Assembly (NCBI GenBank): GCA_963921275.4
Contig: OZ001293.3
Span: forward strand, 4,608,001-4,672,000
Direction of reading: 5' to 3'
From: an uncultured Hormoscilla sp.
GTDB lineage: Bacteria; Cyanobacteriota; Cyanobacteriia; Cyanobacteriales; Desertifilaceae
Length of the DNA: 64,000 nucleotides
Made by a program: the position numbers and the translations under genes. Of the stretch, positions 7,924 through 29,513 are shown piece after piece; the stretch's first letter is position 1; each line of letters begins with the position of its first letter. The notes below the pieces were generated by a model. The model saw only the letters and a program-made list of their open reading frames with translations. It was not told where the DNA came from and ran no database searches.

Positions 7924-9153
7924 ATGAATTGGGAAACTTCTACATTAGGCTTACTTGGAGATTTTACAAATGGAGTTAATTTTAAGAGTGAGCAAATGGG
8001 ACGAGGTTTACGTATAATTAATGTAAAAGACATTTTTAATAGTGGCATATTTATTGATTTTGAATCCTTAGAGTTGGTTGATTTAGAAAATAGTTCTCGT
8101 ATATCAAATTACTTTGTTAAACAAGGAGATATATTTTTTGTGCGTTCATCTGTTAAACGGGAAGGCATTGGTCTTGTTACAATGGCTCGCCGTTCGGATG
8201 AGCGAACTGTATATTGTGGCTTTGTAATTAGATTTCGACCAAAAAGCAATAATTTAGATTCTTTATTTTTAACCTATCTATTGAGAGCGCCAGAATATAG
8301 AAAAAAGTTGATGAATCTATCGGGTGGTGCTGCAATAACGAACATTTCTCAAACTAATTTAAAAGGATTAGAGGTTCCTTTACCTCCCCTGCCAACGCAA
8401 AAACGAATCGCGGATATCCTCTCAAAATATGACGACTTCATCGACAACAACAACCGCCGCATCGCATTACTAGAGGAGTCTGTACATCTGCTGTATCGAG
8501 AGTGGTTCGTGAGCCTGCGGTTTCCGGGTCACGAGTCCGTGCGCGTTGTGGATGGAGTCCCGGAAGGGTGGGAACAGACAACTATAGGCAATGCTTTTTC
8601 AATTATGGGAGGTGGAACACCATCAAAAAAAGTGTCGGAGTATTGGAGAGACGGAACAATTAATTGGTACTCGCCCACAGATTTAACAAAAACAGGAACA
8701 ATGTTTATGGAAAGGTCATCAATTCAAATAAATGAAACAGGTCTAGCTAAAAGTTCTGCATGTTTATTGCCGCCTTTTTCAGTTATGATGACCAGTCGTG
8801 CGACAATTGGCGTTATTGCAATAAATACAACTAAATGTTGTACGAATCAAGGATTTATAAATTGTATTCCGAACCATCGCATTTCTTTGTATTTTTTATA
8901 TTGCTATCTACATGCTAATGTTGAAAAGACTTTAAGTGTCGCTACTGGTGGTGCTACCTTTAAGGAAATATCAAAAAAAGTATTTAATAAATTTTCAATT
9001 TTGATTCCAGAATTACAAATGAAAAAAAAGTTTGAAGAAAAAGCTAGCATTTTGGGGAATCAAATTCTTAATCTGCAATGTCAAAACCAAAAGCTCAAAG
9101 AAGCCCGCGACTCGCTGTTACCACGCCTAATGAATGGGAGCCTAGAAGTATGA
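7924..9153 (+). CDS. hsdS: type I R-M specificity subunit (allele 1, intact)
   Basis: two TRDs, PLPPLPTQKRIADILS spacer, LKEARDSLLPRLMNG C-terminus. Confidence 0.93.
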   Translation: MNWETSTLGLLGDFTNGVNFKSEQMGRGLRIINVKDIFNSGIFIDFESLELVDLENSSRISNYFVKQGDIFFVRSSVKREGIGLVTMARRSDERTVYCGFVIRFRPKSNNLDSLFLTYLLRAPEYRKKLMNLSGGAAITNISQTNLKGLEVPLPPLPTQKRIADILSKYDDFIDNNNRRIALLEESVHLLYREWFVSLRFPGHESVRVVDGVPEGWEQTTIGNAFSIMGGGTPSKKVSEYWRDGTINWYSPTDLTKTGTMFMERSSIQINETGLAKSSACLLPPFSVMMTSRATIGVIAINTTKCCTNQGFINCIPNHRISLYFLYCYLHANVEKTLSVATGGATFKEISKKVFNKFSILIPELQMKKKFEEKASILGNQILNLQCQNQKLKEARDSLLPRLMNGSLEV

Positions 9154-9899: not shown

Positions 9900-10911
9900 A
9901 CTCAAGTTGCGACCTATAAAAATTGGATACAAAAAGCTATGATAAAGAGAATTATTTTCAACTCTAATCCCTTAGATGTAACAGCATGAATTGACTTGGG
10001 AAACAAATTGGTGATTCGACTAAAACAGGTTTCAACTTGTTTTCTTGTTACTTTTTGTATATATTCAAAACAAGAATATTCTTTTCTTTTTGAGTTCTTT
10101 TTTCGCAAAGGTTTTAACATTATACTTGACGACTCTTTTAGTAAATCCTCTAATTGATAATCATTATAAGCTTTATCTCCATAAACTATTGAATTTGATG
10201 GTAAGTCAAAGCCAAAAGATTGCAAAACTTTAACATCATTATAACTACCAGGATCTAGATAAAATTCTATTGGCTTTCCATTTTTGTTTACCAACATATG
10301 AACTCTTAATCCATAAAAATAACGTTTTTTACTGGCAATATACCCTCGATATTCTTCCTTGTTATAAATTTGGCATCTATCAATCCTAATATTATCACAT
10401 ACTGGCACCGGGAAACTATCAAGAATATATTCTTGACCCGGATTGAGCTCTTTAAATGTTTGAGCTATAACTTGGAAGAAAAACATCCAAATTGGTTCCT
10501 CAATATTGTGTAATCGACGATTGAACCTACTTTTACTTAACAGATTTTTTATATACTTGTGTTGGACCATAAATTGACAAGAGCGATCGTGGTGTCCTCC
10601 GAAAAAATATGCAGCAACTAATCCGACTGTCATCACTTCGGCATTGTTCATTTTTACTTGTGGATCTTCTTTTATATTTAACGCTTTTAGTAGCTCGTCA
10701 CAAAGAACAAAAATTGTTGTAATCATATCTTCCATCATCTACATCCCCCAGCAATTAACTATTATTTTAGTACATTATAACCTATAAACAGCCAACCCGC
10801 CGTGTAGCACAAAAAAAATATAATTTTGTATCAAAAGCTACGAAATATCCCAAATATCTGTAAAGTCTAAGTGGGTAATTCATATTTTTTTTAATAGGTC
10901 GCAACTTAGGT
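9900..10911 (-). mobile_element. IS982-family insertion sequence
   Basis: 18-bp IRs AC(TC/CT)AAGTTGCGACCTAT; 7-bp TSD TAATATA (9893-9899, 10912-10918). Confidence 0.9.
9914..10738 (-). CDS. IS982-family DDE transposase
   Basis: LDSFPVPVC, YFYGLRVH, YGDKAY, RKQVETCFS; apparently intact 274 aa. Confidence 0.9.
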   Translation of the reverse strand: MMEDMITTIFVLCDELLKALNIKEDPQVKMNNAEVMTVGLVAAYFFGGHHDRSCQFMVQHKYIKNLLSKSRFNRRLHNIEEPIWMFFFQVIAQTFKELNPGQEYILDSFPVPVCDNIRIDRCQIYNKEEYRGYIASKKRYFYGLRVHMLVNKNGKPIEFYLDPGSYNDVKVLQSFGFDLPSNSIVYGDKAYNDYQLEDLLKESSSIMLKPLRKKNSKRKEYSCFEYIQKVTRKQVETCFSRITNLFPKSIHAVTSKGLELKIILFIIAFCIQFL

Positions 10912-11643: not shown

Positions 11644-11934
11644 ATGAGAAGGGCCGAGTTATTAGAGTTGTTGCGGGAATATCGCCCCAAGTTACAGCAA
11701 TACGGGGTAAAATCTCTGGCGGTGTTTGGTTCTGTGGCGCGAGATGAGGTTACGCCGACTTCTGATGTGGATTTGTTGGTGGAGTTTGATGGGGTGGTGA
11801 CCTTCGATCGCTATATGGATTTGAAATTTTTACTGGAGGATGGTTTGGGGCGATCGGTGGATTTGGTCAGTGCTAAGATGTTAAAGCCTCTTATCAGAGA
11901 AACCGTGCTTCAGGAGGCGATCGATGTCTCGTAG
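11644..11934 (+). CDS. minimal nucleotidyltransferase antitoxin (MntA-like)
   Basis: FGSVARDE...SDVDLLVEF motif. Confidence 0.92.
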   Translation: MRRAELLELLREYRPKLQQYGVKSLAVFGSVARDEVTPTSDVDLLVEFDGVVTFDRYMDLKFLLEDGLGRSVDLVSAKMLKPLIRETVLQEAIDVS

Positions 11935-12292
11935 TTTACGCCTGTATTTTGAATATCTTCTCATCGCCGGTGAAAAGGTGATGCGCTACACAGAAGGGAT
12001 GGAATTTGCCGAGTTTTTGGCAGACGATCGCACGTTTGATGCGGTGGTGCGGAATTTACAGATTATTGGAGAGGCGGTTAAACAAATTCCATTAGAAATG
12101 CGAGAACGCTATTCACAGGTAGAATGGCGCAAAATTGCGGGATTACGGGATGTGTTGGCACATGCTTATTTTAGTTTGGAGGATGAGACAATCTGGAATG
12201 CAGTGGAAACTAAGGTGCCAAAGTTACTCGATGAGGTCAGAGAAATTGTCGAGCGAGAGTTTGGTGGAGTTGATAGTATTGATTCGGAGTAA
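11924..12292 (+). CDS. HEPN/DUF86 ribonuclease toxin (HepT-like)
   Basis: IIGEAVK, WRKIAGLRDVLAHAYF (RX4HXY); overlaps the MNT gene. Confidence 0.92.
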   Translation: MSRSLRLYFEYLLIAGEKVMRYTEGMEFAEFLADDRTFDAVVRNLQIIGEAVKQIPLEMRERYSQVEWRKIAGLRDVLAHAYFSLEDETIWNAVETKVPKLLDEVREIVEREFGGVDSIDSE

Positions 12293-12310: not shown

Positions 12311-13654
12311 ATGAAGTGGGAAAGTAAATCAATTGATGAAATCACCGAGGTCATTATTGACCATCGAGGAAAAACCCCTAATAAAAGTGCATCTGGAATA
12401 CCACTAATTACGGCTAAAATAAAAAATGGAGTCCCGTCAGGGTGGGAACTTCGACAATTAGGTGAAATCATTTTAGAAATCATTGATTATCGAGGAAAAA
12501 CTCCCAAGAAATTGGGCGGTGATTGGTCACAGGAAGGAATTCGCGCTTTATCAGCACTCAATGTGAAAAATAATCGGTTGATAAACTTAGAAAAATGTAA
12601 GATGGTTGATGAAAACTTATATCAAAAATGGATGCAATCTGAAATTTAAAAAGGAGATATTTTAATGACATCAGAAGCACCATTAGGAGAGTTATGCTAT
12701 TTAATGTCTGAAGAAATTTTTTGCTTGAGTCAAAGACTTTACTGTATACGAGCAAATCCTGATATTGTTTTATCTTATTTTTTATTTTGTTCGTTACAGT
12801 CACCTTTTTTTCAAGCAGGGTTAAAAGCTAAAGCCACAGGAACAACAGTTTTAGGAATAAGGCAAAGTGATCTAAAAAATGTACTTGTTCTACTTCCCCC
12901 ACTGCCAACGCAAAAACGCATCGCGGATATCCTCTCAAAATATGACGACCTCATCGACAACAACAACCGCCGCATCGCATTACTAGAGGAGTCCGTACAT
13001 CTGCTGTATCGGGAGTGGTTCGTGAGCCTGCGGTTTCCGGGTCACGAGTCCGTGCGCGTTGTGGATGGAGTCCCGGAAGGATGGGAACGAGTAACCGCAG
13101 AGCGGGTGATCTCGTTTAATCCTAAAACATCAGTTCCTAAAGGTGAAAATCGCCCATTCGTACCGATGCAATCTTTATCAACGAACCTAATGACAATTGA
13201 TGATATTGAATATCGACCGGTAAAAGGTGGAGCTAAATTTAAAAACTACGACACTTTACTAGCTAGGATAACACCTTGCCTTGAAAATGGGAAAACAGCT
13301 TTTGTTCAATTTTTAGACGATGATGAATTGGTTGCCACTGGTTCAACTGAGTTGATCGTCATGCGCTCTGAAAAAGTTTCGCCTTACTGGGTTTATTGTT
13401 TATCTCGATCTTATAATTTCCGACAACACGCAATCAATAGTATGTCAGGTTCAGATAATCGCCAACGAGTTCAACCAAAATCTTTAGAGGGATTTGAAAT
13501 ATTGAAGCCGAAAGAGAATATTTTAGAAAAGTTTCATAATCTATCTAGACCGGTTTTTATAAAGATTCATTTATTAAGTGATGCAAACCAAAAACTCAAA
13601 GAAGCCCGCGACTCGCTGTTACCACGTCTAATGAATGGGAGCCTAGAAGTATGA
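12311..13654 (+). pseudogene. hsdS: type I R-M specificity subunit (allele 2), chimeric with in-frame TAA
   Basis: 12311-12649 and 12665-13654 share a frame and are split by TAA at 12647; spacer and C-terminus near-identical to allele 1, TRDs differ. Confidence 0.88.
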
Positions 13655-16600
13655 GCGCCGAATACTCGGAAGACAAACTCGTACAACAAACCACGGCCGA
13701 TAAATTCCAAGACCTCGGTTGGGAAAGCATTTTTGCCTACAATGAGGAAACCTACGGCGAAACCGGAACCCTGGGCCGATCGCACGAGGGGGAAGTTCTG
13801 CTGAAACGGGACCTCCGCGCCGCCCTAAAACGCCTTAACCCCGGACATCCCGAAACCGCCTATAGCGAAGCCATAGAAAAACTCAGCCAAACCAGCAGTT
13901 CTAAAACCCTGCTGCAACATAACCAGGAAAAATATAAACTCATCCGCGACGGGATCCGCGTCAGTTACACCACCGCGAGGAGTGAAAAACGCGAGCCCTC
14001 ACTGCGCTTCATTGACTTTCAGCAACCGGAAAATAACCGCTTTCTCGTCGTTCGCGAACTCTGGATACAAGGTAAACTCTACCGCCGTCGCCCCGATATC
14101 ATCGGCTTTGTGAACGGCATTCCTCTATTATTTATCGAACTGAAAAAAACCAGCCGCGATCTTCGGGTCGCCTATAACTGCAACTTCAGCGACTACCAAG
14201 ACACTATCCCGGAACTATTCCACTACAACGCCATTGTTTTACTCAGTAATGGCATAAACTGTAAAGCTGGAAGCCTCACCAGTCCTTTCGAGTTCTTCCA
14301 CGAATGGAAACGCCTTCAAGAAAACGAAGTGGGGCGAGTTGACTGGGAAACCATGCTGATGGGCATTTGTACCCCTGCCAATTTCCTCGACTTAGTGCAA
14401 AACTTCCTATTTTTCGATGCCGGGGGGAAAAAAGGCACTGTCAAAATTCTCGCCCGGAACCACCAATATCTCGGCGTTAACCAGACCTTTAATATCCTTC
14501 GCAACCGTAACAACAGTCCAGAACCCAATAAAGTCGGGGTATTCTGGCATACCCAAGGTAGCGGTAAATCCTACTCGATGGCCTTCCTCAGCGAAAAAGT
14601 CCATCGCCTGCTTCCCGGTAACTATACATTTTTAATTGTCACCGATCGGGTGGAACTGGACCAGCAAATCTCCAGCACCTTTGCCAACTTGGGTACTTGC
14701 GCTGGCAACACCCAAGCCACCAGCGGCGCATATCTCACCGAACTGCTGAAGCAAAATCACCGCTACGTCTTCACTTTAATTCATAAATTCAACCGACCGG
14801 GCACCATCTACAGTCAGCGGGATAATATTATCGTCATGTGCGACGAAGCCCACCGCACCCAGTACGGTATACTGGCTGACAATATGCGCCACGGACTACC
14901 CAACGCCGCCTTTATCGCCTTTACCGGAACTCCTTTAATGGACTCCCCTGAAGACCAACTCACCCGTCAAACCTTCGGTGATTATGTTTCTACCTACGAC
15001 TTCCAACGGGCGATCGCCGATGGTGCCACGGTTCCCCTCTACTACGACAACCGGGGCGAAAAACTGGTCTTTCAGTGGGAGGGTGAAGAAATTTCCGTGG
15101 CTAACAGCGAGGAACTTAATGAGAAAATCGCTGAGGAACTGAACAAACACGACCTGGACGAAAAAGACGAAGCCGCTATTTGGCGTCGCTTGAAAAAAGA
15201 TTACATGATTCTCACCGCCCCAGACCGCCTCGATCGCATCGCGGAAGACCTGGTATCCCATTACATCCAACGCTGGCCAACAGGCAAAGCCATGCTAGTC
15301 TGTCTGGATAAAATTACCGCTGTTCGGATGCACGGACTCATCGATAAATACTGGAAACAGGCGATCGCCCAACAGCAACAGCGGGTGAAACAAGCAACGG
15401 ACGATCAAGACGCGATCGCACAGCAAAGCTATCTTGACTGGCTGCAAGAAACGGAATATATTGTAGTCATCAGCGAATCCCAGAACGAGGTAAAAACCTT
15501 TCAAGAATGGGAACTGGAAATCAAACCCCACCGAGAAAAGATCAAAAATCGTCCCCTTGACGATGAATTTAAGGACCGAGGCCATCCCTTCCGCCTCGCG
15601 ATCGTCTGCGCCATGTGGTTAACGGGATTTGATGTCAAGTCCCTGGGGACTCTCTACATCTACAAACCCATGCGGGGACACAATCTCATGCAAACGATCG
15701 CCCGGGCCAACCGAGTTGACGAGGGGAAAGATAACGGTTTACTGGTAGATTACAATGGAATTCTCAAAAGCCTGCGAGATGCCTTATCAAAATACGCTTG
15801 CGGGACAACTGAAACTGCCCAAAGTCAGGATGATACCAGCATCACTGAAGATAAAACCCTGTATCCTGACGTAGAAGCAGAACTCCGCAACAAGTATCAA
15901 TACTCAATTCAAGCCTGCATTAACCATATCCACAACTTCGGTTGCGACTTACAGCAACTCATCGATGCCACTGGTTTTGATAAGTCAGCCCTTCTCGACG
16001 GTAAAAATAAGGACTCCATCCTGAATGCGATTTGTACCAATGATGAATCACGGGCGCGGTTTGATGTACTAGCGCGGCAAGTTTTCCAGAAAAAGCGATC
16101 GCTTCAGGGCTATGACGGCATTACCCGCGAATACCAGCAGTATAACGCCATTGATGCCATTTACAAACAACTCCATCAACCCAAAGAACGCAGCCCTGAC
16201 TTAAACGCAGTCCTGCGATCGCTTCAGGAAAATATCGGAGAGGGAATTATCGTGCAAAGGGAACGAGAACCGGGGGCCGAGTCCGGCAATGTCTATGATA
16301 TTAGTCAAATTGACTGGGATTTACTGAAAGCATCCTTTAGAAAGTCATCAACCAAAAACCTCCAGGTACAATCTCTTAAAAATTACGTTCAACAGCAACT
16401 GAACCGGATGTTGGAAAAGAATCAAAGTCAGCGCCGCCTTAGTCTTTACGAACGCTACCACAAAATTGTCAACGACTACAACCGAGAAACTGACCAGGTG
16501 GCGATCGAGCAAACCTTCGAGGCCCTCATGTACCTGGTGCGAGATATCTCCGAAGAAGAAAGCCGCGCTGTCCGGGAAAACTTAAATGCAGAACATCTGG

Positions 16601-16908
16601 CAATTTTCGATTTACTGTGCGAGAATAAAGAAAATCTCAGTCCCCGATCGCGCAATCAAATTAAAGAAGTGGCCCGATCGTTACTTCTTGAAATAAAAGC
16701 CAGTTTATAAACTCTAGAAAGTTGGCAAAATAAAGAATCGACCCAAGCACAAGTACGCCAACTCATTTACAATATTCTTTACGATGAAATCGCGGTTTTA
16801 CCCATCAATGATTATGAGGAAAAGGAAATCGAAGAATATACCAATGTTATCTACCTGCACGTATTTCGCCAATATGGCCGGGCTAGCAGTCAATCCAATG
16901 TCGCTTAA
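13651..16908 (+). pseudogene. hsdR: type I R-M restriction subunit with premature stop
   Basis: RPDIIGFVNGIPL-IELK nuclease, HTQGSGKS, DEAHR, FTGTP, MWLTGFD; TAA at 16708, and the frame continues (TLESWQNKESTQAQV...HVFRQY) to TAA at 16906-16908. Confidence 0.88.
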
Positions 16909-16968
16909 TATAGTAGGGTGGGCAATGCCCACCCTACTTCTGCCTCTTTTGTTGTAGAAAAGATAAAT

Positions 16969-17460
16969 ATGGAAAAGCTTATTCTGGGATTAGACCCGGG
17001 ATTGGCCACTCTGGGGTTTGGGATAATTTGCTGTCAGACTGATGGTAATGGAGACAATAATGGCGTCAAAACTCTTGATTTTGGCGTGATTAAAACTCCA
17101 GCATCAGCCAAGATGGGCGATCGGCTGCGAACGATTTACGAAGATTTACACTTCCTGGTTTCAGAGTGGCAACCAGACTTAGCGGCGGTAGAAAAGCTGT
17201 TTTTTTATCGGATGGGAAATGTGATATTGATAGCTCAGGCGCGGGGAGTGCTAACCTTAGTGTTAGCTCAAAACAATATCCCAATGGTTGAATTTACTCC
17301 CCCGCAAGTGAAGCAGGCATTAACGGGTTACGGCAATGCGGATAAAGAGGAAGTCCAGGAAGCGGTAATGCGGGAGCTAGACTTGGAGTATATTCCTAAA
17401 CCAGATGATGCAGCGGATGCCCTGGGTGTAGCCTTGACCGCTTGGTTTCAATCAGAATAG
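16969..17460 (+). CDS. ruvC: Holliday junction resolvase
   Basis: [30 protein letters not shown]. Confidence 0.96.
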
Positions 17461-18011
17461 TTAATTGTTAATGGTTAATTGTTAATTATGAAACGATAGA
17501 ACACCATGCTTAACCCATTGTCCTGCCTCCTGTCAAATGGGAAGGCGAGAAAAGATGATTTTCTGTTCTGGTGCGGAGCTAGCAGCAGCACCGATGGCAC
17601 CGGTTGCATAATCTAGGACATTTACATCAGCTTCCTGCAACTGCGGTCGATTTCGATCCTCTAGCAGTTGCACTCTCTGGCAAACCACGTGCATTAAAAG
17701 TCAATTTTATCCGTCAAGATTTTAGCGATTAAGTATAATTATTTATTGACGATTAATATGCACCCATGTATAATTGTGTGGTTTGTAGCCAGTCGGATTA
17801 GATTCGGCGATCGGTTGCTTGACAGCAAAAGAAAATTTTCTCTGTTAAAGATTAGGTAATTAACTATAATTACTGTTGACATTATTAAATGTAGCCTGTA
17901 AAGTAGTAAAAAAAGTTGTGATAGACATGGTTGGGCGGCTATAATAAGGGTATGTTAAGTATTGTGGCGATTTCAGCCCCCCAAGAAAGTCTATCATATC
18001 TTGAAAAAATG

Positions 18012-18109: not shown

Positions 18110-19607
18110 ATGAATGCAGAAGTTTTGACATTACAGACGAGAGTGGAAAATACTATTTCGTTGGGGAAAAGTCATTTTCGTGAATATAAGTCTGCTTTTG
18201 AAAACGCACCAGACAAGAAAGTACGAAGAAAGGTTAAACATATCTGTGCTGACATTGCTGAAGCACTGGTGGCATTTGCCAATGCTGACGGTGGTGAATT
18301 GCTTGTTGGGGTTGAGGACAATGGAACAATTACTGGCATTCCTCATGACGAAAAGGAAGTGCAGCAAATGCTGAAAGCTGTTGTGACCCACACCGAAGCG
18401 GATACAAAGCTTCCTTTAATCCATAGCGATCTTCTTAATCTTGATGGCTCAAAAGTATTGTTTTTTGCAGTTATTTGCTAAAGACTCTCGCAATTGGTAT
18501 CCGCACTCTAGTGTCCGAATCCTTAAAGTAAATGGGACAAAATTGAAATCAGGTGAGCAATACAATGTGGTGTCGGATAGAGGAATTTATGGAAACATTT
18601 TTGAACTATTAAGAAAAGCATGGGAGGAATTGCGATTCTTTCTGGCTTATAAGACAGAGTTTGGTTCAGATGCAAAGTTTGAGCAAAAGTATGTCTATCC
18701 TGAAGATGCGTGCAGGGAAGCACTTGTGAACGCAATCGCCCATCGAGATTATGTTGCTCAGTCAGGCATAGAAATATTTATTTTCGACGACCGAATGGAA
18801 ATAAAAAGCCCGGGAGCTTTACTATCCACAATGTCATTGGAAACATTACGTGACTTGAAGGGTGCTCATGAATCCAGAAACTCTACTATTGCAAGAATAT
18901 TGCGAGAAAATCAAATCATGAGAGAACTGGGCGAAAGAATGCAACGAATTTTCAAGGCAATGGAGAAAGGTGAATTGCAAGAACCAGAAATTTCGACTGA
19001 CGATCGTTCATTTTCAATAACTTTGTGGAAGAAATCAGTTTTTTCACCACAGCAGATGCAGTGGCTAAATGTATTCCGTGAGTACGATCTAACTAGACTC
19101 CAAAAGAAGATTCTTGTCTGTTGCATGAATGGGAACCAGATATCACAGCAAGATATTATTGATGCGATGAATGATGATGATAGAAACACTTATGATCGTG
19201 AAGTAACAGGTTTGAGAAAGGCCGGAATTCTGACTACCACAATGAGCAATTCTCAAGCTAACAAATTCGCAAAAAATAATAGTGTTGAGAAAGCGAAAAT
19301 AGCTAGATTTAAAGTAACTGTACCTGCATCAAGTTCTGTAAATCAGCAAGCAAAATTGGGTGTATTTGTACGCAATTTACCTGGAGATATTAATGAATAC
19401 GAGGTGCAAAGAAGATTCGAGAGTTGTGGACGAGTACGGAATGTTCAATTGGCAGCACCAAGAAATGGCTATTATGGAAGCTACAGGTTTGCAACCGTGT
19501 TCTACATATCAAAACAAGCCGTCGATTCAGCTATTGAAGAACTGGATGGCATTGAGGTTCGCTCACGAAGAATTGATGTTCGCAAATACATACCCAAGGC
19601 AACATAA
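18110..19607 (+). pseudogene. Schlafen/AlbA_2 + RecG-C-type (HATPase_c_4) + wHTH + RRM protein, split by an internal deletion or frameshift
   Basis: EYKS...VAFANADGGELLVGVED; REALVNAIAHRDY, EIKSPG, SRNSTIA; C-terminal VFVRNLP...RFATVFY...AIEELDG. Confidence 0.8.
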
Positions 19608-20002: not shown

Positions 20003-20401
20003 TCATTGCAACGGACGGTTAACTCGAATCAGCTTACCCCTTAAACTTTCTTCTCTAGAAACAGCGTCGTTGATTCGACTGGCCAGGGTTTCAAAGTCCG
20101 TGTCCTCCGTGCAAACCACGATACCCGCATGGTCGCTTTGTTGAAGGTGCAGCCGCATGAAATGACACGCTACGCTGATTGCCGGTTAAAACTGCGCGAT
20201 TGTTACTGGCTGCGAAAGCAAGCACCTCTGGAACTGAGGTTTGTAGTGAGGACGAAAGTCCTCACTACAAACCTCAGAAAAATCGGGAATCCCAAGATTG
20301 GCATTCCCGGCTTCTTGGGCAGTGAGGACATCGTGACCCATTGCTCGCAGAAATGCTATAACTGGACGGGGGAAATTTTCATCGATATAAAAACGTGCCA
20401 T
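20003..20401 (-). pseudogene. DUF5615 PIN-like toxin disrupted by a palindromic insertion
   Basis: MARFYIDENF...GHDVLT...IPD, then palindrome GAGGTTTGTAGTGAGGAC-GAAA-GTCCTCACTACAAACCTC, then EVLAFA...RAVLT...HAGIVVC in other frames. Confidence 0.8.
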
Positions 20402-20405
20402 TAAA

Positions 20406-20744
20406 TTAGCCTTCCTGCATCACTTCGTCGTTTTCGCGAATCGCTTGTTCGATTTCCTCTGGATATGCCTCAGCATAAGCCCAGGCATTGACTAAATCAG
20501 CGGCACTCAGATGCGGAAAAGCTTCTAAAATCTGGGCATCGCTCGCACCTATACGACGGTAATTCACTAAAGACCAAACGGGTATGCGGGTTTTGGCAAT
20601 ACAGGCATCGCCACCCACAACCCCAGGAGTTTTGCTAATACCTTGCGAACTGTGGAGAAAGCTTTGGGTTAAAATCTGAATTACTTCCACCTTCTCGGCC
20701 TTGGTCAAGGCTAGGATTTCAGTTTCTAATTGTTTGACAGTCAT
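20406..20744 (-). CDS. DUF433 antitoxin
   Basis: TPGVVGGDACIAKTRIPVW...AFPHLS; lies upstream of the DUF5615 gene. Confidence 0.9.
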   Translation of the reverse strand: MTVKQLETEILALTKAEKVEVIQILTQSFLHSSQGISKTPGVVGGDACIAKTRIPVWSLVNYRRIGASDAQILEAFPHLSAADLVNAWAYAEAYPEEIEQAIRENDEVMQEG

Positions 20745-20875
20745 TTTTTTACCCTCGCTGTGAGGCTCCGATAATATCTACGATTGTATAGCAAGTCTAA
20801 ATCATTAGCAATATCTGAGAAACCGATCCGAATCTCAGTTCAACGGTAAGGTGGGCGGTGCCCACCCTACATTCA

Positions 20876-21138
20876 TTAGCTAACCTTGACCTTGACTACC
20901 TTGTTCTTTTCTTCTTCAGCTTTGGGCAGAGTTAGAGTCAGAATGCCATCTTTATACTCGGCTTGAACGTGAGAATTATTGATGCGACCGGGCAGGGGAA
21001 TGACTCGCTGAAACTTGCCGTAACGAAACTCAGTGCGAGTCATGCCCTTGTCTTCGGTTTTGGTTTCAGATTTGCGATCGCCACTCACAGATACAGCTTC
21101 AAGAGTCGCCTGAATGTCTAGGTCATTAATGTCCATCT
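20876..21138 (-). pseudogene. 3' half of a diverged Hsp20 gene copy
   Basis: similar but not identical to 21772-22033; 5' half missing. Confidence 0.85.
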
Positions 21139-21279
21139 TTGTATTCCGCTTGAATATCAGAATTATTGATGCGACCGGGGGGAGGAATGACTGGGTGTGA
21201 TCAAAAGTAGTTGCAGTAGGAGCCCCCCAAACCCCCTGGTCACATTAGCTATAGCTATTTCAACATGCAGCTTGACAAT

Positions 21280-21420
21280 AAACTATTGTTGGCTTACAAT
21301 AAACTATTGCTGGCTTACAACAAGCTATTGCTGGCTTACAACAAGCTATTGCTGGCTTACAACAAGCTATTGCTGGCTTACAATAAGTTGTTGTAAGCCA
21401 GCAATAAGCTATTGTAAGCC
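21280..21420. repeat. 21-bp tandem repeat CAAGCTATTGCTGGCTTACAA with inverted terminal units
   Basis: about 5 tandem units, then TTGTAAGCCAGCAATA in the opposite orientation. Confidence 0.9.
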
Positions 21421-21562
21421 TATTGTTTGTTACAATTTTCTGACGATTGTCGCCGTGCCGGGCACGGCGACACCATAAGTTCAAATAGGGTGTGGTCATG
21501 CGTTGCAGCACCGATCCCCCCTAACCCCCCCCTTCCGAAAGGGAGGGTTTCGGAAGCCCCCT

Positions 21563-21740
21563 TATCCCAATGGTTGAATTTACTCCCCCGCAAGTGAAGC
21601 AGGCATTAACGGGTTACGGCAATGCGGATAAAGAAGAAGTCCAGGAAGCGGTAATGCGGGAGCTAGACTTGGAGTATATTCCTAAACCAGATGATGCAGC
21701 GGATGCCCGTAGCCTTGACCGCTTGGTTCAATCAGAATAG
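21563..21740 (+). repeat. duplicate of the ruvC 3' end
   Basis: matches 17277-17460 except for small deletions and a substitution. Confidence 0.92.
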
Positions 21741-21771
21741 TAGGGTGGGCAGTGCCCACCCTACATTGAAA

Positions 21772-22212
21772 TTAGCTAACCTTAACCTTGACTACCTTGT
21801 TCTTTTCTTCTTCAGCTTTGGGCAGAGTTAGGGTCAGAATGCCATCCTTATACTCTGCTTGAACGTGAGAATTGTTGATGCGACCGGGCAGGGGAATGAC
21901 ACGCCCGAACTTGCCGTAACGAAACTCAGTGCGCGTCATGTCATTTTCCTCAGTTTCGCTTTTTGATTTGCGATCGCCGCTCACAGATACAGCTTCAGCA
22001 GTCGCCTGAATGTCCAGGTCATTAATGTCCATACCAGGAACTTCCAGTTTCAGGTGATAAGCTGACGCTGTTTCTGACAATTCCGCAGCAGGTGCAAAAG
22101 CAAAAGTTCCGTCGCCCCGACGAGAAGTAGTGAAGAAGTCGTCGAACAGGCGATTCATTTGCCGTTGCATCGTGTCAAGCTCACGAAATGGTTCAAAACG
22201 TACAAGTGCCAT
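21772..22212 (-). CDS. hspA: small heat shock protein Hsp20
   Basis: PFRELDTMQRQMNRLFD, EFRYGKFGRVIPLP, AEYKDGILTLTLPK. Confidence 0.92.
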   Translation of the reverse strand: MALVRFEPFRELDTMQRQMNRLFDDFFTTSRRGDGTFAFAPAAELSETASAYHLKLEVPGMDINDLDIQATAEAVSVSGDRKSKSETEENDMTRTEFRYGKFGRVIPLPGRINNSHVQAEYKDGILTLTLPKAEEEKNKVVKVKVS

Positions 22213-23517: not shown

Positions 23518-26388
23518 ATGACTGAATCACAACCTCCCGACTATGCTGCTATTATCCGCGCTGCTAAGTCAGCCGCCCCTGATACACCGGATTTTTTCGC
23601 ACCAGGCAAAACTGTTCATTCCCCTCACTACGGTACGGGGAAAGTGATTAGAATTCTCGATAACCGCCTGATTGTCAAGTTTCCCGGTTACTCCGTTCCC
23701 GTGCAATTTAAGGATTGGCGGCAAGCAGTGCAGTCGGGAGAGGTACTCCCGGAAACCTCTGCGATAACTGCCTCCACTGTGGAGAAAAAAATTACTGAAA
23801 GCGAAACAGGGATAGATTTTGAAATTATCGGCGTAATTGAGAAGCCTGAGTACCGGGCGATCGCCTCCCAGTTCTCCTCAAGTATCGCGGACATCACGAT
23901 TATACCTGCATCACCGGGAAAGCGCTATTCGATCCCAGCAGATTTACCTCCGACCCTGGTCCAGGGGTTACAGCGGGTGGGCATTACTAGCTTGTACGGA
24001 CATCAGTTGGAAGCGTTAGAACAACTCAGAAGTGGCAAGGACTTATCGATAACCACTCCCACTGCTTCGGGGAAAACTCTCTGCTACAATTTAGCTATTC
24101 TCGAATCTTGTCTCAAGCAACCTCATAACTGCGCCCTTTATATTTTTCCTCTCAAGGCCCTCGCTTTTGACCAGTTGGGGAAACTCCAACGGTTGGTCGC
24201 CACCTTTCCTCTCTCTGATCGGTTGAAAGTCGGCCAAATGACCGGGGATACTTCTAGGGGCGATCGCAAGCAACTGTTTTTCCCCAACCTTCCCCACATC
24301 TTAGCTGTCAGTCCGGACTTGCTGCATTACCAATTAGAAAAGGTGCGGCGGCGGGGAGAATGGCAACCTTGGCGAGAGTTTTTCCGCTGCCTGCGTTGGG
24401 TGGTTATAGACGAGTCTCACATTTATATTGGTGCTTTTGGCGCTCACTTTGCTAACCTGATGCGAAGATTGCGTCGCGCCGTGGATGAAGTGGGCGGAAA
24501 TAGTGAGAAATTGCAGTTTATTTGCTCCTCCGCTACTATTGGCAACCCCGCCGAAATGGCAATGGGTTTCAGCGGGAGAACCCATCAACCCGAGAGACTG
24601 CATCTAATTGAATGCAGCGATGCAACTGCCAGTACGCAAACGATTCTTTCCTTTGCTCCTAGTGACACCGCTAATCCCGATGCCTGTAAGATTATTGTCT
24701 CATTGTTGCAGCAGAATTTGAGGGGACTTGTCTTCTGTAACTCCCGAAGGGCGGTGAAGAAATTGCTCTCCTTAATTCAACGAGAGACAGCAAGGCAAGG
24801 ACTTGGCTATTTAGCCCAGCATGTGGGCATTTTCTACGGTTCCCTGAAGGGCGATCGCCGCCGCAATTTAATTCGCAAGCTAGAGACCGGTTCGCTGAAG
24901 GTCATCATCTCCACTTCGGCCCTAGAAGCTGGCATTGACTTACCAGAATTAGATTTTTGTTTGTTGCGCGGCTATCCCGGTTCGATCATGTCCTTTCGCC
25001 AGCGCCTCGGACGGGTGGGCCGGAAGCATCCGGGGTTGATTATCTTCCTGCCCGTGGCCCAAAATGCCCTAGACAACTATTATGGACAAAACCCCAAACA
25101 GTTACTAGAAGGGGAAGTAGAAAGTGCTGTCTTTAATCCTGATTATCCCACAATTTTGAGCAAGCATCTAGAATGTTGCGGCGCTGAAAGCGGGTTACCA
25201 CTCCAGGATATAGAAAGTAGGTTTGGAGAAAAAGCAGGGGCGATCGCCTCGGCACTGCTGGACCAGGAAAAGCTTGCTCTCTCTGCCAAGGATTATTTGC
25301 AAGCATATGGTTATCCTCACAAAAAGGTTAACATCAGAGGCAATAACTCCCTCAGGGTTGACTTGGTGAACACCGAGACAGGAGAAGAGTTTGAGAATAT
25401 GCCATTAGACATCGCTTACCGAGAGGTTTTTCCGAAAGCAATTTACACTGCTAGCGAGGATGGTAAAAGTCTGATTAGTTATGAGTGTGAAAAGCTAGAT
25501 ATAGAAAAGGGAAAAGCATATCTAAAGCCCTTGAGCGCTCCGCCAAATCTATTTACTAAAGCAGTGAATGATTTACAAGTTAAGCCGTTATCAAAACTTG
25601 AGGAAACCAAGATTATTGATACAGCCTTTACAGAAGGAAGACTGCGACTGCGGCTGTATTGGGGAGAAATCACTTCCCTGGTAACGGGATATGATGTGTT
25701 AAGCGAAGAATATCGCCCTACTTGTACTAATAAAAGATGTCCTAATTATCACCGGCCATTGAAGGGGAAAAGCTGCTCCGCTTGCGGTCGGAAGCTGCAT
25801 TATGCTGAAATAAACGAGGTAAAGGAGGAAATTCAGTTCGAGAAACCCTACGGCACTACCTATCAAGCTCCTTTACTTAAGGTAGAGATTAATCCTGGCC
25901 TGTTAAAGGCGCTCTCCCAGGAGGTCTCGCGCCTCAAAAAGACTGTCAGAGAGCAACATCAAGACAAAATTCCTAATGGACTAGAGTATTTGTGGAGATC
26001 GACTCCAGACTGGTTAGCTTTACACAGCATTGGACATCTGCTGAGTTTCGCCCTGCCTTTAGTCGTGCTCTCCTCCAGTTTAGATGTTAACTACTTTGTC
26101 GAGAAAGAAGGCGATCTCGCCACCGTTGTCGGCTATTTCTTCGATACCTGCGATGACGGCAATGGTGCCGCCGAGGCCATCTTTCAGCACTTCCCCCGTT
26201 TGGCCGCAAAGGCTAAGTCTTTGGCGGCAGCTTGTGATTGTCAATTCGGTTGTCCCAGGTGCCTCACCCAGTCGAGATGTCCCCAACGAAACGTGGGACT
26301 CCATAAGGAAATAGGGCTGTTTCTCCTAAAGGCGATCGCACCGGTTGAGGACTTTAGTCCTCACTACAAACCTGTTTACATAATTTAA
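23518..26388 (+). CDS. DEAD/DEAH-box helicase with C-terminal DUF1998 Zn domain (YprA/MrfA/Hrq1-like)
   Basis: TPTASGKT, PLKALA, DESH, SATIGNP, TSALEAGID, QRLGRVGR, CDCQFGCPRC. Confidence 0.9.
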   Translation: MTESQPPDYAAIIRAAKSAAPDTPDFFAPGKTVHSPHYGTGKVIRILDNRLIVKFPGYSVPVQFKDWRQAVQSGEVLPETSAITASTVEKKITESETGIDFEIIGVIEKPEYRAIASQFSSSIADITIIPASPGKRYSIPADLPPTLVQGLQRVGITSLYGHQLEALEQLRSGKDLSITTPTASGKTLCYNLAILESCLKQPHNCALYIFPLKALAFDQLGKLQRLVATFPLSDRLKVGQMTGDTSRGDRKQLFFPNLPHILAVSPDLLHYQLEKVRRRGEWQPWREFFRCLRWVVIDESHIYIGAFGAHFANLMRRLRRAVDEVGGNSEKLQFICSSATIGNPAEMAMGFSGRTHQPERLHLIECSDATASTQTILSFAPSDTANPDACKIIVSLLQQNLRGLVFCNSRRAVKKLLSLIQRETARQGLGYLAQHVGIFYGSLKGDRRRNLIRKLETGSLKVIISTSALEAGIDLPELDFCLLRGYPGSIMSFRQRLGRVGRKHPGLIIFLPVAQNALDNYYGQNPKQLLEGEVESAVFNPDYPTILSKHLECCGAESGLPLQDIESRFGEKAGAIASALLDQEKLALSAKDYLQAYGYPHKKVNIRGNNSLRVDLVNTETGEEFENMPLDIAYREVFPKAIYTASEDGKSLISYECEKLDIEKGKAYLKPLSAPPNLFTKAVNDLQVKPLSKLEETKIIDTAFTEGRLRLRLYWGEITSLVTGYDVLSEEYRPTCTNKRCPNYHRPLKGKSCSACGRKLHYAEINEVKEEIQFEKPYGTTYQAPLLKVEINPGLLKALSQEVSRLKKTVREQHQDKIPNGLEYLWRSTPDWLALHSIGHLLSFALPLVVLSSSLDVNYFVEKEGDLATVVGYFFDTCDDGNGAAEAIFQHFPRLAAKAKSLAAACDCQFGCPRCLTQSRCPQRNVGLHKEIGLFLLKAIAPVEDFSPHYKPVYII

Positions 26389-27460: not shown

Positions 27461-28660
27461 TCACAGGTATATTTGAGAATATATATAGCGGGCTAACTGT
27501 AAAGCCAGTAAAGGTGGTACGGCATTTCCAACTTGTGTAAATTGACGCGCAGTTGGACCACAAAAAACGAAATCATCAGGGAATGTTTGTAGCCTCGCTG
27601 ATTCTCTGACAGTTAAAGTCCGAGGATAAATAGGATGCAGATGGGATCTGCCGCCACCCTTCGTACCTCCACTGATTACCGTTTTAGATGGCAGATTAGG
27701 ATCTAATATATCAACTCTTCCCAGTCGATCTCGCTCTCCGTAATTTAGCTCCATATATCTAATCAATGATTCTGCTTTATGCTTTCTGGTTACATGATTT
27801 TCTAAGCCGTTTATTGTTTTTTCAAAAGCTTTATAGCAGGTAACAACCTTTGAGCTTGGTTCAGGAAAGATAAATTTGTTATTGGTACGATGACCAAATA
27901 CAAAGAGGCGATTCCGATTTTGTGGAACACCATAATGCGCAGCATTTGCTATCACCGGTTCAGAGATGTTGTATCCACACCCTCCTAAAAGATTAAGTGC
28001 TTCCGATAACTGAGTGCCGCCGTCAATATCTAGTAATCCTGTAACATTCTCAATCAAGAAAGCTTTTGGTTGAAATTGTTGAACATACCAAACAAAGTCG
28101 AAGAGAAGATTCCCGAAATCAGCATGAGCAAAACCAACTCTCTTAAAGTTATCTCCGTCTTTCGCGAATCTTTGATTAGCGACAATACTGAAAGGTTGAC
28201 AGGGCGGACCTCCTGTAAAAATCCCTTCAAATGGAATTGAAATGCCGACAATTAACTTCAAAATCGTGAAAAATTCTTCTCTATTTCTTACATCTCCACT
28301 GTATTCAGGTGGTCCGATCGCAACCCAATCAGGTCGGTTCAATCTAATTGTTTGACAAAAAATCGGATTGACTTCAATTGAAGCGAGGTGTTGAAAACCT
28401 GCATATTCAAAGCCAATATCTAAGCCACCGGCACCAGAGAAGAAGCTAACTACTGGAACGCCATGATTTTCCAAATCAAAATTATCAGGTGTTAGGAACT
28501 GAGCCGAACTATGAGTTATAGGTGGATTATTTCTGTATCTAAGAGCGTCATATCTCAAGCTCCTCCGCTTCAACTCACTGTGCAGGTCTAGCTTTTTGGC
28601 AATACATCTATTTAAAATGTCTAATTGTTCGTCAATAGTAATACTTGAATAAAACTTCAT
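27461..28660 (-). CDS. DNA (cytosine-5)-methyltransferase
   Basis: FFSGAGGLD, GGPPCQ, ENV, PQNRNR, RLQTFPDDF, QVGNAVPP. Confidence 0.95.
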   Translation of the reverse strand: MKFYSSITIDEQLDILNRCIAKKLDLHSELKRRSLRYDALRYRNNPPITHSSAQFLTPDNFDLENHGVPVVSFFSGAGGLDIGFEYAGFQHLASIEVNPIFCQTIRLNRPDWVAIGPPEYSGDVRNREEFFTILKLIVGISIPFEGIFTGGPPCQPFSIVANQRFAKDGDNFKRVGFAHADFGNLLFDFVWYVQQFQPKAFLIENVTGLLDIDGGTQLSEALNLLGGCGYNISEPVIANAAHYGVPQNRNRLFVFGHRTNNKFIFPEPSSKVVTCYKAFEKTINGLENHVTRKHKAESLIRYMELNYGERDRLGRVDILDPNLPSKTVISGGTKGGGRSHLHPIYPRTLTVRESARLQTFPDDFVFCGPTARQFTQVGNAVPPLLALQLARYIYSQIYL

Positions 28661-29513
28661 AGCCTAATTGCCTCCTTTGCTAATTGATAAACTTCTATCG
28701 CTTCATCTTTAGAGGAGAAATCATCAACTAAATTTCTCTCAAACCATTGCTTGTAATATACATGAACGCTTCGATGACAGTTGGGACATAAGCCAACAAC
28801 ATCTTCTATAGATGTTCCTGCCCCTGTAATAGTAATGGCTGATAAAAGTGGTAGTAAATGATGAACTTCTAAAATGTTGCTAGTCCAAGGATATCTATGG
28901 CGCATATCACAAAAATTAGCATTTCCCGAACTTGCCTCTCTTCGTCGCCAATTGGTAAACGCTCTACCATTTTCAAAGCTCTGTAATGCTCTAGGGGTTC
29001 ACATCCATTACAGTTATTACCTATTATCAAAGAGAAAACTTGTGATAGCTCTATAAGAGCTTCCCCATGCTCCAATAATTGCGCAAATAGATATTTCAAG
29101 ACAGCGCATAGAGGAAAAACGCGATTATCAGAGGGTGTGTAATCTTGGAATGCGGGAGAAGGCAAATAGAATCGTGGAATCCAGAATGAAAAATATTCGT
29201 CTACATCTATCTCAGAGGAGTCAACACTAGCTAGTCTCTGACCAATATCTGTAACTCTTAAGTTTCCGTCTAACTGGGTTGCTATCAAAGCACAGGCGAA
29301 CACACGAGCATAGTTTCTCCACAGGGTGTAAGTAGTTGGGGCAAATGATAAGCCCGTTCGAGATGTGAGAACTTCTCGAATAAAAGGGTCTCCATCTCGA
29401 CCAATATTGCTCCCCTCAAGCTCAACAAGACCTTCACAAATTTTCTTAATATTTTCAAAACGAAAATATGTTGATCTACCTTGATCCCAGCGCCATCTCT
29501 TAACCATAACCAT
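28657..29513 (-). pseudogene. HNH restriction endonuclease with internal deletion and frameshift
   Basis: N-terminus WRWDQGR... and C-terminal LEVHH...LCPNCHRSVH lie in different frames, joined near 28910; stop overlaps the methylase start. Confidence 0.8.

Follow-up and report, generated by a model that had tools for sequence, protein, structure and literature searches.

The question raised by this locus is what gene occupied positions 18110-19607 of the window (the whole 64,000-nucleotide stretch of DNA from an uncultured Hormoscilla sp. that was analysed here), and what has remained of it. The original prediction was a Schlafen-type (AlbA_2) protein with a HATPase_c_4 region, a likely winged helix-turn-helix (wHTH) and a C-terminal RRM, broken near 18470-18480. 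We find that the segment is what is left, after decay, of one gene, whose intact version is a protein of approximately 600 aa, which belongs to the prokaryotic Schlafen-GHKL ATPase class ("Schlatpase", pSlfn HisKinase-HTH) and carries a canonical RRM at its C-terminus. Taken as one explanation, a decayed Schlatpase-RRM gene together with the mechanism proposed below for its intact relatives is, in our judgement, the probable account of these observations.

The domains follow each other in the order SLFN_AlbA_2, linker, HATPase_c_4 (GHKL ATPase), helical/wHTH region and RRM, and the matches to SLFN_AlbA_2, HATPase_c_4 and RRM_1 all exceed the Pfam cut-offs (Table 1). The AlbA_2 motifs seen originally lie in a PF04326 match of frame A (E 4.3e-14, 53.5 bits, cut-off 25.3), which extends over profile positions 2-88 of 118 only; the intact homologues cover positions 1-117, thus the domain of the window copy is truncated, nevertheless its assignment to the family is sound. 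The HATPase_c_4 region was found as foreseen. In the 388-aa ORF of frame B, residues 308-378 match RRM_1 (PF00076, E 2.2e-9, 37.5 bits, cut-off 20.7), and the last 95 aa by themselves give E 1.8e-10 and 41.0 bits against the same cut-off. The motifs that had suggested an RRM in the last ~80 aa, VFVRNL (19362-19379) and RFATVFY (19485-19505), occupy the RNP2 and RNP1 positions. The wHTH is putative: Pfam gave no wHTH match in the window protein, and the presumed assignment comes from a helical region in the structural model of P0002, the closest intact homologue (residues 414-503), and from a full-length fold match to PDB 3lmm. NCBIfam contains no family for the core, and PADLOC no dedicated model, its matches being limited to two Aga_SIR2 models and to a pAgo model, of which only the Schlatpase part was hit.

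Table 1. Features of the decayed gene (coordinates refer to the window)
Feature	Position	Strand	Details and evidence
Frame A ORF	18110-18481	+	123 aa
N-terminal remnant (residues 1-121), SLFN_AlbA_2 nuclease domain without its last quarter	18110..18472	+	Pfam PF04326; intact homologues align to it over their residues 1-122
Codon 20, AAA (Lys), at the first Glu position of the catalytic Ex4ExK; GKSHFREYK	18167..18169	+	sequence; Glu in 92/92 homologues
Deletion junction, 2-nt overlap 'gt'	18470..18471	.	alignments; run X5 contigs
TAA stop closing frame A just past the junction	18479..18481	+	ORF list, sequence
Frame B remainder: linker end, GHKL ATPase, helical/wHTH region, RRM	18471..19607	+	alignment; P0002 residues 222-596
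GHKL N-box EALVNAIAHRDY, Mg-ATP-binding Glu and Asn kept	18717..18752	+	sequence; E304/N308 in 92/92
HATPase_c_4 (GHKL-type ATPase) domain	18765..19025	+	PF13749, E 8.5e-22, residues 109-195 of the 388-aa ORF
AGA (Arg) in ELGERM	18936..18938	+	sequence, alignment; Gly (ELGEGM) in 92/92 homologues
Helical region, presumed wHTH, ending in the conserved RFKV hinge	19047..19316	+	mapped from P0002 model 414-503
RRM_1 domain	19362..19574	+	PF00076, PDB sequence profile search, fold, column statistics

The break was located correctly in the original prediction, but it is more than a frameshift. Comparison with the intact homologues of ~600 aa shows that approximately 300 nt (~100 codons) were lost at the junction; the number of nucleotides lost is 2 mod 3, hence the two sides are out of frame. 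In the alignment the window pieces stop at residue 122 of P0002 and resume at 223, the missing part (residues 123-222) being the linker together with the nuclease domain's final quarter. Agreement with the homologues holds in frame A through a Val codon (18470-18472) and in frame B from Leu-Phe-Ala-Lys-Asp (18471 onwards). A simple homopolymer frameshift was rejected: the frame changes past the T6 run, and 100 residues are gone as well. We also rejected a split of the gene by rearrangement, because the missing segment did not turn up elsewhere in the genome: a search for the missing 100 aa in the 7.03-Mb assembly did not find them, the best match (E 0.74) was in a distant paralogue.

A relative approximately 96% identical in DNA (run X5), whose contigs are fragments, retains the missing segment. 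These contigs agree with the window as far as 18471 on one side and from 18470 onwards on the other; beyond the junction they diverge for 70 and 239 letters, respectively. The 30 run X5 letters preceding 18470, translated by eye in the frame of the gene, read G-I-R-L-R-T-A-A-L-L, in agreement with the homologues just before LFAKD. Since so close a relative still has the segment, the loss must be recent. Protein pieces of this relative were not found in the database, where the best non-self match was 61% identical.

It is extremely improbable that the junction arose through an error of assembly or sequencing and that the gene is whole in the organism. The only difference-free contig across the junction came from run X1, possibly the very data from which the assembly was built; against this, runs X1-X4 (three samples of one study) contain all sampled words of the stretch, a loss of ~300 nt is unlike a homopolymer-type error, the junction, which follows the T6 run, lies within codons that match the homologues on either side, and the missing segment is absent from the rest of the assembly.

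The remaining parts of the gene also carry substitutions. The catalytic E-x4-(E/D)-x-K motif, as defined in PMC13056530, is broken, it reads K-SHFR-E-Y-K at 18167-18190. Five of the 83 columns that are invariant among 27 homologues are altered in the window (E20K, F26Y, G32N, G377R and G439C), a number at the top of the leave-one-out range (0-5) and not outside it, and so are four of the 63 near-invariant columns; E20, F26 and G377 are present in all of 92 homologues. In the window the SLFN and GHKL domains lie in separate frames with the linker between them deleted, whereas in the homologues they share one chain, which is the arrangement that defines a Schlatpase. The window copy is a pseudogene, and it cannot be a working nuclease.

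Frame B was called as a separate ORF of 387-388 aa, which starts at 18441/18444 and ends at 19607 (protein P0001). One could suppose that this product (GHKL ATPase, wHTH and RRM without the nuclease) is still expressed, and that it acts as an RNA-binding ATPase or modulates other Schlatpases in the cell. The frame is open over 388 codons, it retains the Glu and Asn of the GHKL N-box and the RRM, the same genome has a distant paralogue, and in RzAgo removing just the SLFN domain had, according to the main text of the preprint, little effect on tetramer formation (bioRxiv 10.64898/2026.05.29.728809). We nevertheless consider an expressed product very unlikely. The ORF has Arg instead of the Gly of ELGEGM and Cys instead of Gly at another invariant column, it lacks the linker preceding the ATPase, and upstream of 18471 it consists of out-of-frame nuclease sequence. 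With so recent a deletion, chance would be expected to leave such a frame open. RNA data sets holding the stretch were not listed. The window copy matters only as a further example of the frequent inactivation of such genes.

Some observations were made on the surroundings of the gene. The hairpin between RuvC and Hsp20 is a dispersed repeat. The idea that RuvC-hairpin-Hsp20 was an ancestral junction entered by a 3.4-kb island was found unsupported, the RuvC end and Hsp20 match different places in four genomes of the same genus. The only tandem repeats near the gene were one of 7 nt at 17456-17487 and one of 11 nt within the gene. Rfam gave no match between 16500 and 22500, and a promoter/terminator scan, with 11 promoter-like sites vs. 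6.7 expected, was uninformative.

The original prediction called for intact homologues with the same fusion, and these are numerous. The RRM fusion was found in 100 of the 120 best protein clusters, at 20 of 80 genome loci and in 46 of the best 150 representatives at 50% identity, and its carriers belong to approximately ten bacterial phyla and include one archaeon. The SLFN-ATPase-RRM fusion is thus real and widespread. The Pfam domain check was run on the window, five homologues and 21 RRM-bearing loci; at 20 of the 21 loci, which were also scanned for neighbours, all three domains are in one ORF, and at one (L038) they are split over two ORFs. RRM_1 scored 42-76 bits in 15 of 16 single-ORF homologues and loci, the exception being P0036 (27.8 bits). 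All catalytic and ATP-binding residues are kept in the intact proteins: among 92 full-length RRM-bearing homologues E20, E25, K27, D60, E69, E304 and N308 are each present in every one, and D70 in 91.

The C-terminus does fold as an RRM, as far as can be judged from the AF2 model of P0002, the protein on which the fold was examined in place of the window protein. Residues 518-590 form a beta-alpha-beta-beta-alpha-beta arrangement (pLDDT ~85-91), and Foldseek aligned this tail with RRM structures at TM 0.90 (5lxy_B, rmsd 1.1 A over 77 columns) and TM 0.84 (5iqq_E). In a PDB sequence profile search PABP, hnRNP A1 and others were matched over profile positions 504-597. RRMs typically have aromatic residues at position 2 of RNP2 and at positions 3 and 5 of RNP1. 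Phe or Tyr occupies these positions in 73, 86 and 80 of the 92 homologues, respectively; the window has F, F and T, the Thr, which replaces the aromatic residue at RNP1 position 5 in the clade of the window, occurring in 6 of 92.

The RRM is an optional module behind a fixed RFKV hinge, and on a core tree of 116 proteins its presence switches at least 9-11 times. At the same position sister proteins carry a cold-shock domain (CSD; P0141 and P0148) or three OST-HTH/LOTUS domains (P0137 and P0146); the cores of these sisters are 42-48% identical with that of P0002, as compared to 31-33% for generic Schlatpases. Because cold-shock or LOTUS domains stand in the place of the RRM in the sisters, the exchange suggests that the RRM tail binds RNA. 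A search for RRM remnants downstream of RRM-less genes, which bears on loss vs. gain of the module, yielded none at E <= 0.01 in 80 loci.

Whether the intact proteins serve defence is a separate question. The original prediction saw in the gene a single-gene defence nuclease; the absence of a conserved partner gene at the 21 RRM-bearing loci scanned fits a single-gene unit, but the defence part is inferred. Defence, toxin-antitoxin or transposase genes occur within 5 kb at 6 of the 21 loci (L026, L032, L033, L038, L041 and L048), a raw count, and PADLOC-specific matches were obtained at 4 of the 15 loci scanned with PADLOC. A literature search found no experiment on any RRM-bearing member, phage protection included. 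In the text of PMC13056530, Slfn-HisKinase is one of four architectures chosen for tests, and only the DUF262 and Ig-like fusions are reported as protective. A defence role for the RRM-bearing subfamily is thus plausible but weakly supported.

The opposite view would be that the family has no role in immunity and serves housekeeping or the stress response, as an RNA-processing enzyme or a regulator; its wHTH would sit on DNA, and its RRM would hold a cellular RNA that is trimmed by the SLFN domain. At 15 of the 21 loci the 5 kb searched around the gene hold no defence, toxin-antitoxin or transposase gene, and the neighbours are ordinary metabolic, transport or regulatory genes. A pair of cyanobacterial copies shows synteny, the gene lying between those for a MoxR ATPase and a dihaem cytochrome; the synteny of L004 and L005, which belong to two genera of the same family, suggests vertical inheritance. 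In addition, 30.4% of the pSlfn genes are, according to the text of PMC13056530, away from defence genes and may be non-immune, as against the 69.6% reported for the defence association of pSlfn overall. We think that a housekeeping role is unlikely. The distribution is patchy (none of 4 same-genus genomes, none of 13 from the same family, and 4 of 401 genomes in a sample of the phylum, including the window's own), disrupted copies are frequent (the core is split at 7 of 80 loci), the window copy adjoins a type I R-M operon and toxin-antitoxin genes, the L038 copy sits inside a CBASS locus, and tail swapping and horizontal spread are typical for defence genes.

A mechanism for the intact members can be drawn up by analogy with RzAgo and RorSlfn5, as these are described in the main text of bioRxiv 10.64898/2026.05.29.728809 and in section 6 of PMC13056530. 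The RRM tail would bind single-stranded RNA, and its role could be either sensing of a trigger, e.g. phage RNA, or holding of the substrate. Assembly would bring the SLFN domains into pairs, which would be the active RNase, and this might cleave tRNA (or other RNA) and halt translation. It is a possible, although doubtful, extension of this scheme that in one Schlatpase clade RRM, cold-shock or LOTUS modules, which are interchangeable, took the place of the DNA-binding tail or were added to it, and that the members of this clade are single-protein, RNA-triggered immune effectors, in which the tail, on binding a foreign or aberrant single-stranded RNA, licenses ATP-driven assembly and tRNA cleavage. 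If true, bacteria would have their own equivalent of RNA-sensing innate immunity, based on the Schlafen nuclease that is also used by mammals. The switch-on mechanisms in print are limited to fusions with an Ig-like sensor, Argonaute or a cA4 sensor, and none concerns the stand-alone Schlafen-ATPase proteins, the commonest prokaryotic Schlafens. The recognisable optional tails of the subfamily (RRM, CSD and LOTUS) are all RNA or single-strand binders, therefore RNA as the ligand is a testable idea, and natural controls are at hand because near relatives with and without the RRM exist.

It is instructive to compare these proteins with known systems. The architecture had been thought undescribed, which holds for the RRM tail but not for the core. 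AlbA_2 followed by HATPase_c_4 and HTH is, in the published texts, the commonest prokaryotic Schlafen class (pSlfn1/pSlfn2, PMC13056530; Schlatpase, bioRxiv 10.64898/2026.05.29.728809), and some Schlafens of this class are described there as tRNases activated by phage. Neither of these two 2026 catalogues, as given in Supplementary Table 2 of PMC13056530 and in the main text of the preprint, contains the RRM tail; the novel part is limited to this tail. In the pSlfn catalogue (Perez Taboada et al., Nat Microbiol 2026, PMC13056530), pSlfn1 and pSlfn2 (Slfn-HisKinase and Slfn-HisKinase-HTH) have the same core as our proteins and head the list of 55 compositions reported there, with 34.0% and 19.2% of 5,930 proteins. 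No composition in its Supplementary Table 2, where the term RRM occurs 0 times, has an RRM; a variant listed under pSlfn2, pSlfn.His_Kinase_A.OB, may correspond to the CSD-tailed sisters.

The Schlatpase RzAgo of Runella zeae, which is described in the main text of bioRxiv 10.64898/2026.05.29.728809, has the same two N-terminal domains (SLFN_AlbA_2 and PF13749) in the same order. Its nuclease motif, E(x)4(D/E)xK, is found in the RRM family too, and so is the Glu/Asn pair of its GHKL domain, the Mg-ATP-binding E314/N318 of RzAgo corresponding to E304/N308 of the RRM family. The PADLOC pAgo model PDLC02394 matches P0002 over residues 25-431 (E 5.8e-32). Unlike RzAgo, the RRM family has a tail of wHTH and RRM, no Argonaute core and nothing that would point to guide-dependent sensing. 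According to the same main text, in which the term RRM does not occur, an HTH terminates more than 90% of Schlatpase proteins.

The best fold match of the whole core is DIP2311 of Corynebacterium diphtheriae (PDB 3lmm, a structural-genomics entry; Foldseek E 9.9e-20, 16-18% identity), whereas the fold matches of the RRM come from other PDB chains. To our knowledge, no function has been published for 3lmm.

The N-terminal RNase domain of the mammalian SLFN11/13/14 belongs to the same Pfam family and has the same Ex4ExK motif. The mammalian enzymes, which are described in PMC13056530 and in the main text of bioRxiv 10.64898/2026.05.29.728809 as cutting tRNA or rRNA and thereby blocking translation, have two lobes per chain and an SF1 helicase-type ATPase, in contrast to the one lobe and GHKL ATPase of the bacterial proteins (bioRxiv 10.64898/2026.05.29.728809), and they lack an RRM.

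Finally, the tail is the same domain as in the small stand-alone bacterial RRM proteins, e.g. the cyanobacterial Rbp proteins (NCBIfam NF058537, Rbp_regulator). This NCBIfam model matches residues 308-386 of the window ORF with E 6.6e-6 and 26.3 bits, below its cut-off of 100, hence the ORF falls outside that equivalog; unlike in the stand-alone Rbp proteins, the RRM is here the final module of a 600-aa enzyme.

Two overlapping open reading frames make up the Schlatpase gene, and Pfam recognizes SLFN_AlbA_2 on the first, frame A (E 4.3e-14, profile positions 2-88 of 118 only), and both HATPase_c_4 (E 8.5e-22) and RRM_1 (E 2.2e-9, 37.5 bits against a cut-off of 20.7) on the second, frame B. Because these matches fall on the two ORFs as described, the original prediction of an AlbA_2, a HATPase_c_4 and a C-terminal RRM domain was correct as written. 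No family for the core was found in NCBIfam, where the RRM-type matches were all below threshold.

Features in and around the Schlatpase gene of the window
Feature	Position	Strand	Remark
hsdM	6009-7466		type I R-M operon
hsdS	7924-9153		type I R-M operon
IS, DDE transposase	9914-10738	-	interrupts type I R-M operon
MNT/HEPN toxin-antitoxin pair	11644-12292		interrupts type I R-M operon
second, partial hsdS	12665-13654		interrupts type I R-M operon
hsdR	13651-16710		type I R-M operon
ruvC	16918-17460		after R-M operon, upstream of Schlatpase gene
ORF frame A	18089/18110-18481	+	123 aa counted from ATG at 18110
ORF frame B	18441-19607	+	388 aa, overlaps frame A ORF
DUF433 gene, then DUF5615 (PIN-like) gene split into two ORFs	20003-20744	-	downstream of Schlatpase gene
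ruvC 3' end, duplicated	17277-17422; 21563-21708		second copy 4.3 kb downstream, 99% identical
hsp20 3' part, two copies	20875-21136; 21771-22032		91% identical
25-28-nt palindrome GTAGGGTGGGCAATGCCCACCCTAC	16910; 20843; 21737		marks the borders
repeat, seven register-shifted copies	21245-21433		21-nt spacing (63-nt unit), inverted arm; gives long artefactual ORFs on both strands
DEAD/Helicase_C protein with MrfA zinc-binding domain, then C-5 cytosine methylase, then small HNH protein	23518-26388 and 27461-28905		

Intact homologues are 595-610 aa long, and the two closest, P0002 (74% identity) and P0003 (73%), each carry all three domains. When aligned to them, frame A ends in VLFFAV and frame B restarts at LFAKDS, leaving residues 123-222 of P0002, which make up the last part of the nuclease domain and the helical linker, without counterpart in the window. 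The two frames meet at 18470/18471, where a break near 18470-18480 had been predicted and where homologues are longer by about 100 residues; judged from the codon phases the length lost is 2 mod 3, so about 300 nt have been deleted out of frame. Slippage in the T6 run close by, considered as the cause of the break, is ruled out by the codon phases and the missing length. In the 7.03-Mb assembly, searched as a whole, no other site encodes the missing 100 residues. Contigs of the public sequencing run X5, derived from a related organism, match the window piece by piece with 96-99% identity, one as far as 18471 and a second from 18470 onwards, and continue beyond the junction for 70 and 239 letters absent from the window. 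The 30 letters preceding 18470, translated by eye, read GIRLRTAALL in frame B, the sequence that precedes LFAKD in the homologues, thus the relative retains the segment and the deletion is recent. Another run, X1, which is possibly the assembly's own source, crosses the junction without difference.

Compared with 27 RRM-bearing homologues, the window copy deviates at five of the 83 covered invariant columns (E20K, F26Y, G32N, G377R and G439C), a count at the top of, not outside, the range of 0-5 broken columns obtained when each of the 27 was left out in turn; it also deviates at four of 63 near-invariant columns. E20, F26 and G377 are each present in 92/92 proteins of a wider set of full-length RRM-bearing members, and the catalytic Ex4(E/D)xK motif, described in the main text of PMC13056530, has E20 as its first Glu. 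The deletion and the changes at invariant columns together make the window copy a recently inactivated pseudogene, whose 388-aa ORF may still be translated.

The neighbouring DUF5615 gene lies in two ORFs and is therefore a second pseudogene adjoining the first. Since ruvC and hsp20 are non-adjacent in same-genus genomes, the ruvC-hsp20 region is a lineage-specific mosaic; the palindrome found at its borders is dispersed in this genome and its relatives. The helicase, methylase and HNH genes are further defence-type or repair-type genes nearby. A second, distant Schlatpase-like gene is located outside the window in the same genome (G000:C1:4703403-4703954); it has 23% identity over query residues 16-204 and one in-frame TGA.

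The search for intact homologues found the fusion to be common: the profile built from the family detects an RRM in 100 of the best 120 clusters at 90% identity (the window's own ORF included), core and RRM occur together in 46 of the best 150 representatives at 50% identity, and an RRM directly follows the core in 20 of the 80 loci taken from genomes of species representatives. Record titles place the fusion in Paenibacillus, Clostridiaceae, Acidobacteriota, Nitrospirae, Bacteroidota, Verrucomicrobiota, Chloroflexota, Actinomycetota (Acrocarpospora, Labedella, Rubrobacteraceae), Alpha-, Beta- and Gammaproteobacteria, a cyanobacterium and Methanoregula. The fusion is annotated in databases; a Tumebacillus protein is labelled 'RRM domain-containing protein' in UniRef. 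Around the window's own genome the family is rare and patchy, with members in none of four same-genus and none of 13 same-family genomes, and in four of the 401 genomes sampled from the phylum (the window's own counted), only two of these being other full-length RRM-bearing copies. At 7/80 loci, some of which are MAGs with possible assembly errors, the core is split into at least two pieces.

The C-terminus had been predicted to fold as an RRM, and the AF2 model of P0002 (mean pLDDT 78.6, pTM 0.44, separate domains well predicted) bears this out, with residues 518-590 forming a beta-alpha-beta-beta-alpha-beta unit. The top Foldseek match was DIP2311 (3lmm), a structural-genomics protein that aligns with the whole core at E 1e-19; it was followed by RRM structures such as 5lxy_B (TM 0.90, rmsd 1.1 A, 77 columns). 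Against PDB sequences, the family profile matched PABP, nucleolin, hnRNP A1 and plastid cS22 at profile positions ~504-597. E20, E25, K27, D60 and E69 of the nuclease never vary among the 92 proteins (D70 is kept in 91/92), nor do GHKL E304, N308 and the motifs HESRN and ELGEG. At the RNP aromatic positions 73/92, 86/92 and 80/92 proteins have F/Y, so most members probably possess an RRM that functions in nucleic-acid binding; one of these positions is Thr in the window's clade.

A FastTree built from the core alone, with 116 proteins and the fragment of the window, requires no fewer than 9-11 changes in RRM presence and has close sisters that differ in it; the RRM is therefore an optional module placed after the conserved RFKV hinge, and the changes of state may be gains or losses. 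At the 80 loci, RRM-less genes are not followed by any RRM remnant. On the core profile 27 whole-core representatives score at least 478 bits, clearly apart from generic Schlatpases (at most 329 bits). With the fragment P0145 left out, the tails of 26 were classified. Fifteen have an RRM by the family profile, P0138 a weak one (Pfam RRM_1, 22.6 bits), and P0123 an RRM-like tail without aromatic residues, as judged by eye. Pfam finds a cold-shock domain in P0141 (33 bits) and P0148 (20.5 bits, below cut-off) and three OST-HTH/LOTUS domains in P0137 and P0146; P0133, P0142, P0143, P0149 and P0153 (the last by eye only) have tails without Pfam match. These five and the two cold-shock forms share a helical stretch of ~70 aa with a conserved S-P-Y / S-N-P-F motif and no Pfam match, which in P0141 and P0148 lies between core and cold-shock domain. 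Core identity to P0002 is 42-48% for the cold-shock and LOTUS forms, as against 31-33% for generic Schlatpases.

The original prediction proposed a defence nuclease. No neighbour gene is conserved across the 21 RRM-bearing loci that were scanned, out of 22 known (L035 was left out). In six of them (L026, L032, L033, L038, L041, L048) a defence, toxin-antitoxin or transposase gene lies no more than 5 kb away; the others have housekeeping-like surroundings, and gene context hints at a defence role only weakly. At L038:9911-11889, in a Bacteroidetes MAG, the gene is in two ORFs, split after ~85 residues, and is flanked by a CBASS cyclase and a TIR-STING effector on one side and a TIR protein on the other. 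A DUF5615 or DUF433 gene lies directly downstream in two unrelated loci (L026:12462-12797, L048:12016-12393), thus beside the gene in 3/22 loci with the window counted, which may be due to chance as such pairs are abundant. At L032:14474-16513 (Acrocarpospora) a 'Schlafen group 3 helicase' domain gene (PF09848) is found 2.4 kb downstream, past an IS4 transposase; in mammalian SLFN protein the Schlafen nuclease and group 3 helicase modules are fused in one chain.

The architecture had also been thought to be undescribed, which in the literature searched holds for the tail but not for the core. The main text of PMC13056530 distinguishes 55 compositions among 5,930 prokaryotic Schlafens, most commonly Slfn-HisKinase (34.0%) and Slfn-HisKinase-HTH (19.2%), and the main text of bioRxiv 10.64898/2026.05.29.728809 terms SLFN plus PF13749 the 'Schlatpase' supradomain, its tails being HTH in >90%, then TPR and Ig-like. 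The word 'RRM' is absent from both main texts and from Supplementary Table 2 of the former, and titles and abstract openings of the papers listed in the literature searches contain no description of a Schlafen/AlbA_2-RRM fusion. AlbA_2-wHTH proteins near CRISPR loci are mentioned in bioRxiv 10.1101/2025.09.30.679098. For RzAgo, the main text of bioRxiv 10.64898/2026.05.29.728809 shows that ATP drives tetramerisation, that SLFN domains pair and that tRNA cleavage is licensed by the target. By analogy, intact members of our family would most likely be Schlafen RNases assembled by ATP, with an RNA-binding tail that senses or holds RNA. The family is a member of the known Schlatpase / pSlfn2 kind, and the RRM tail is a variant of it.
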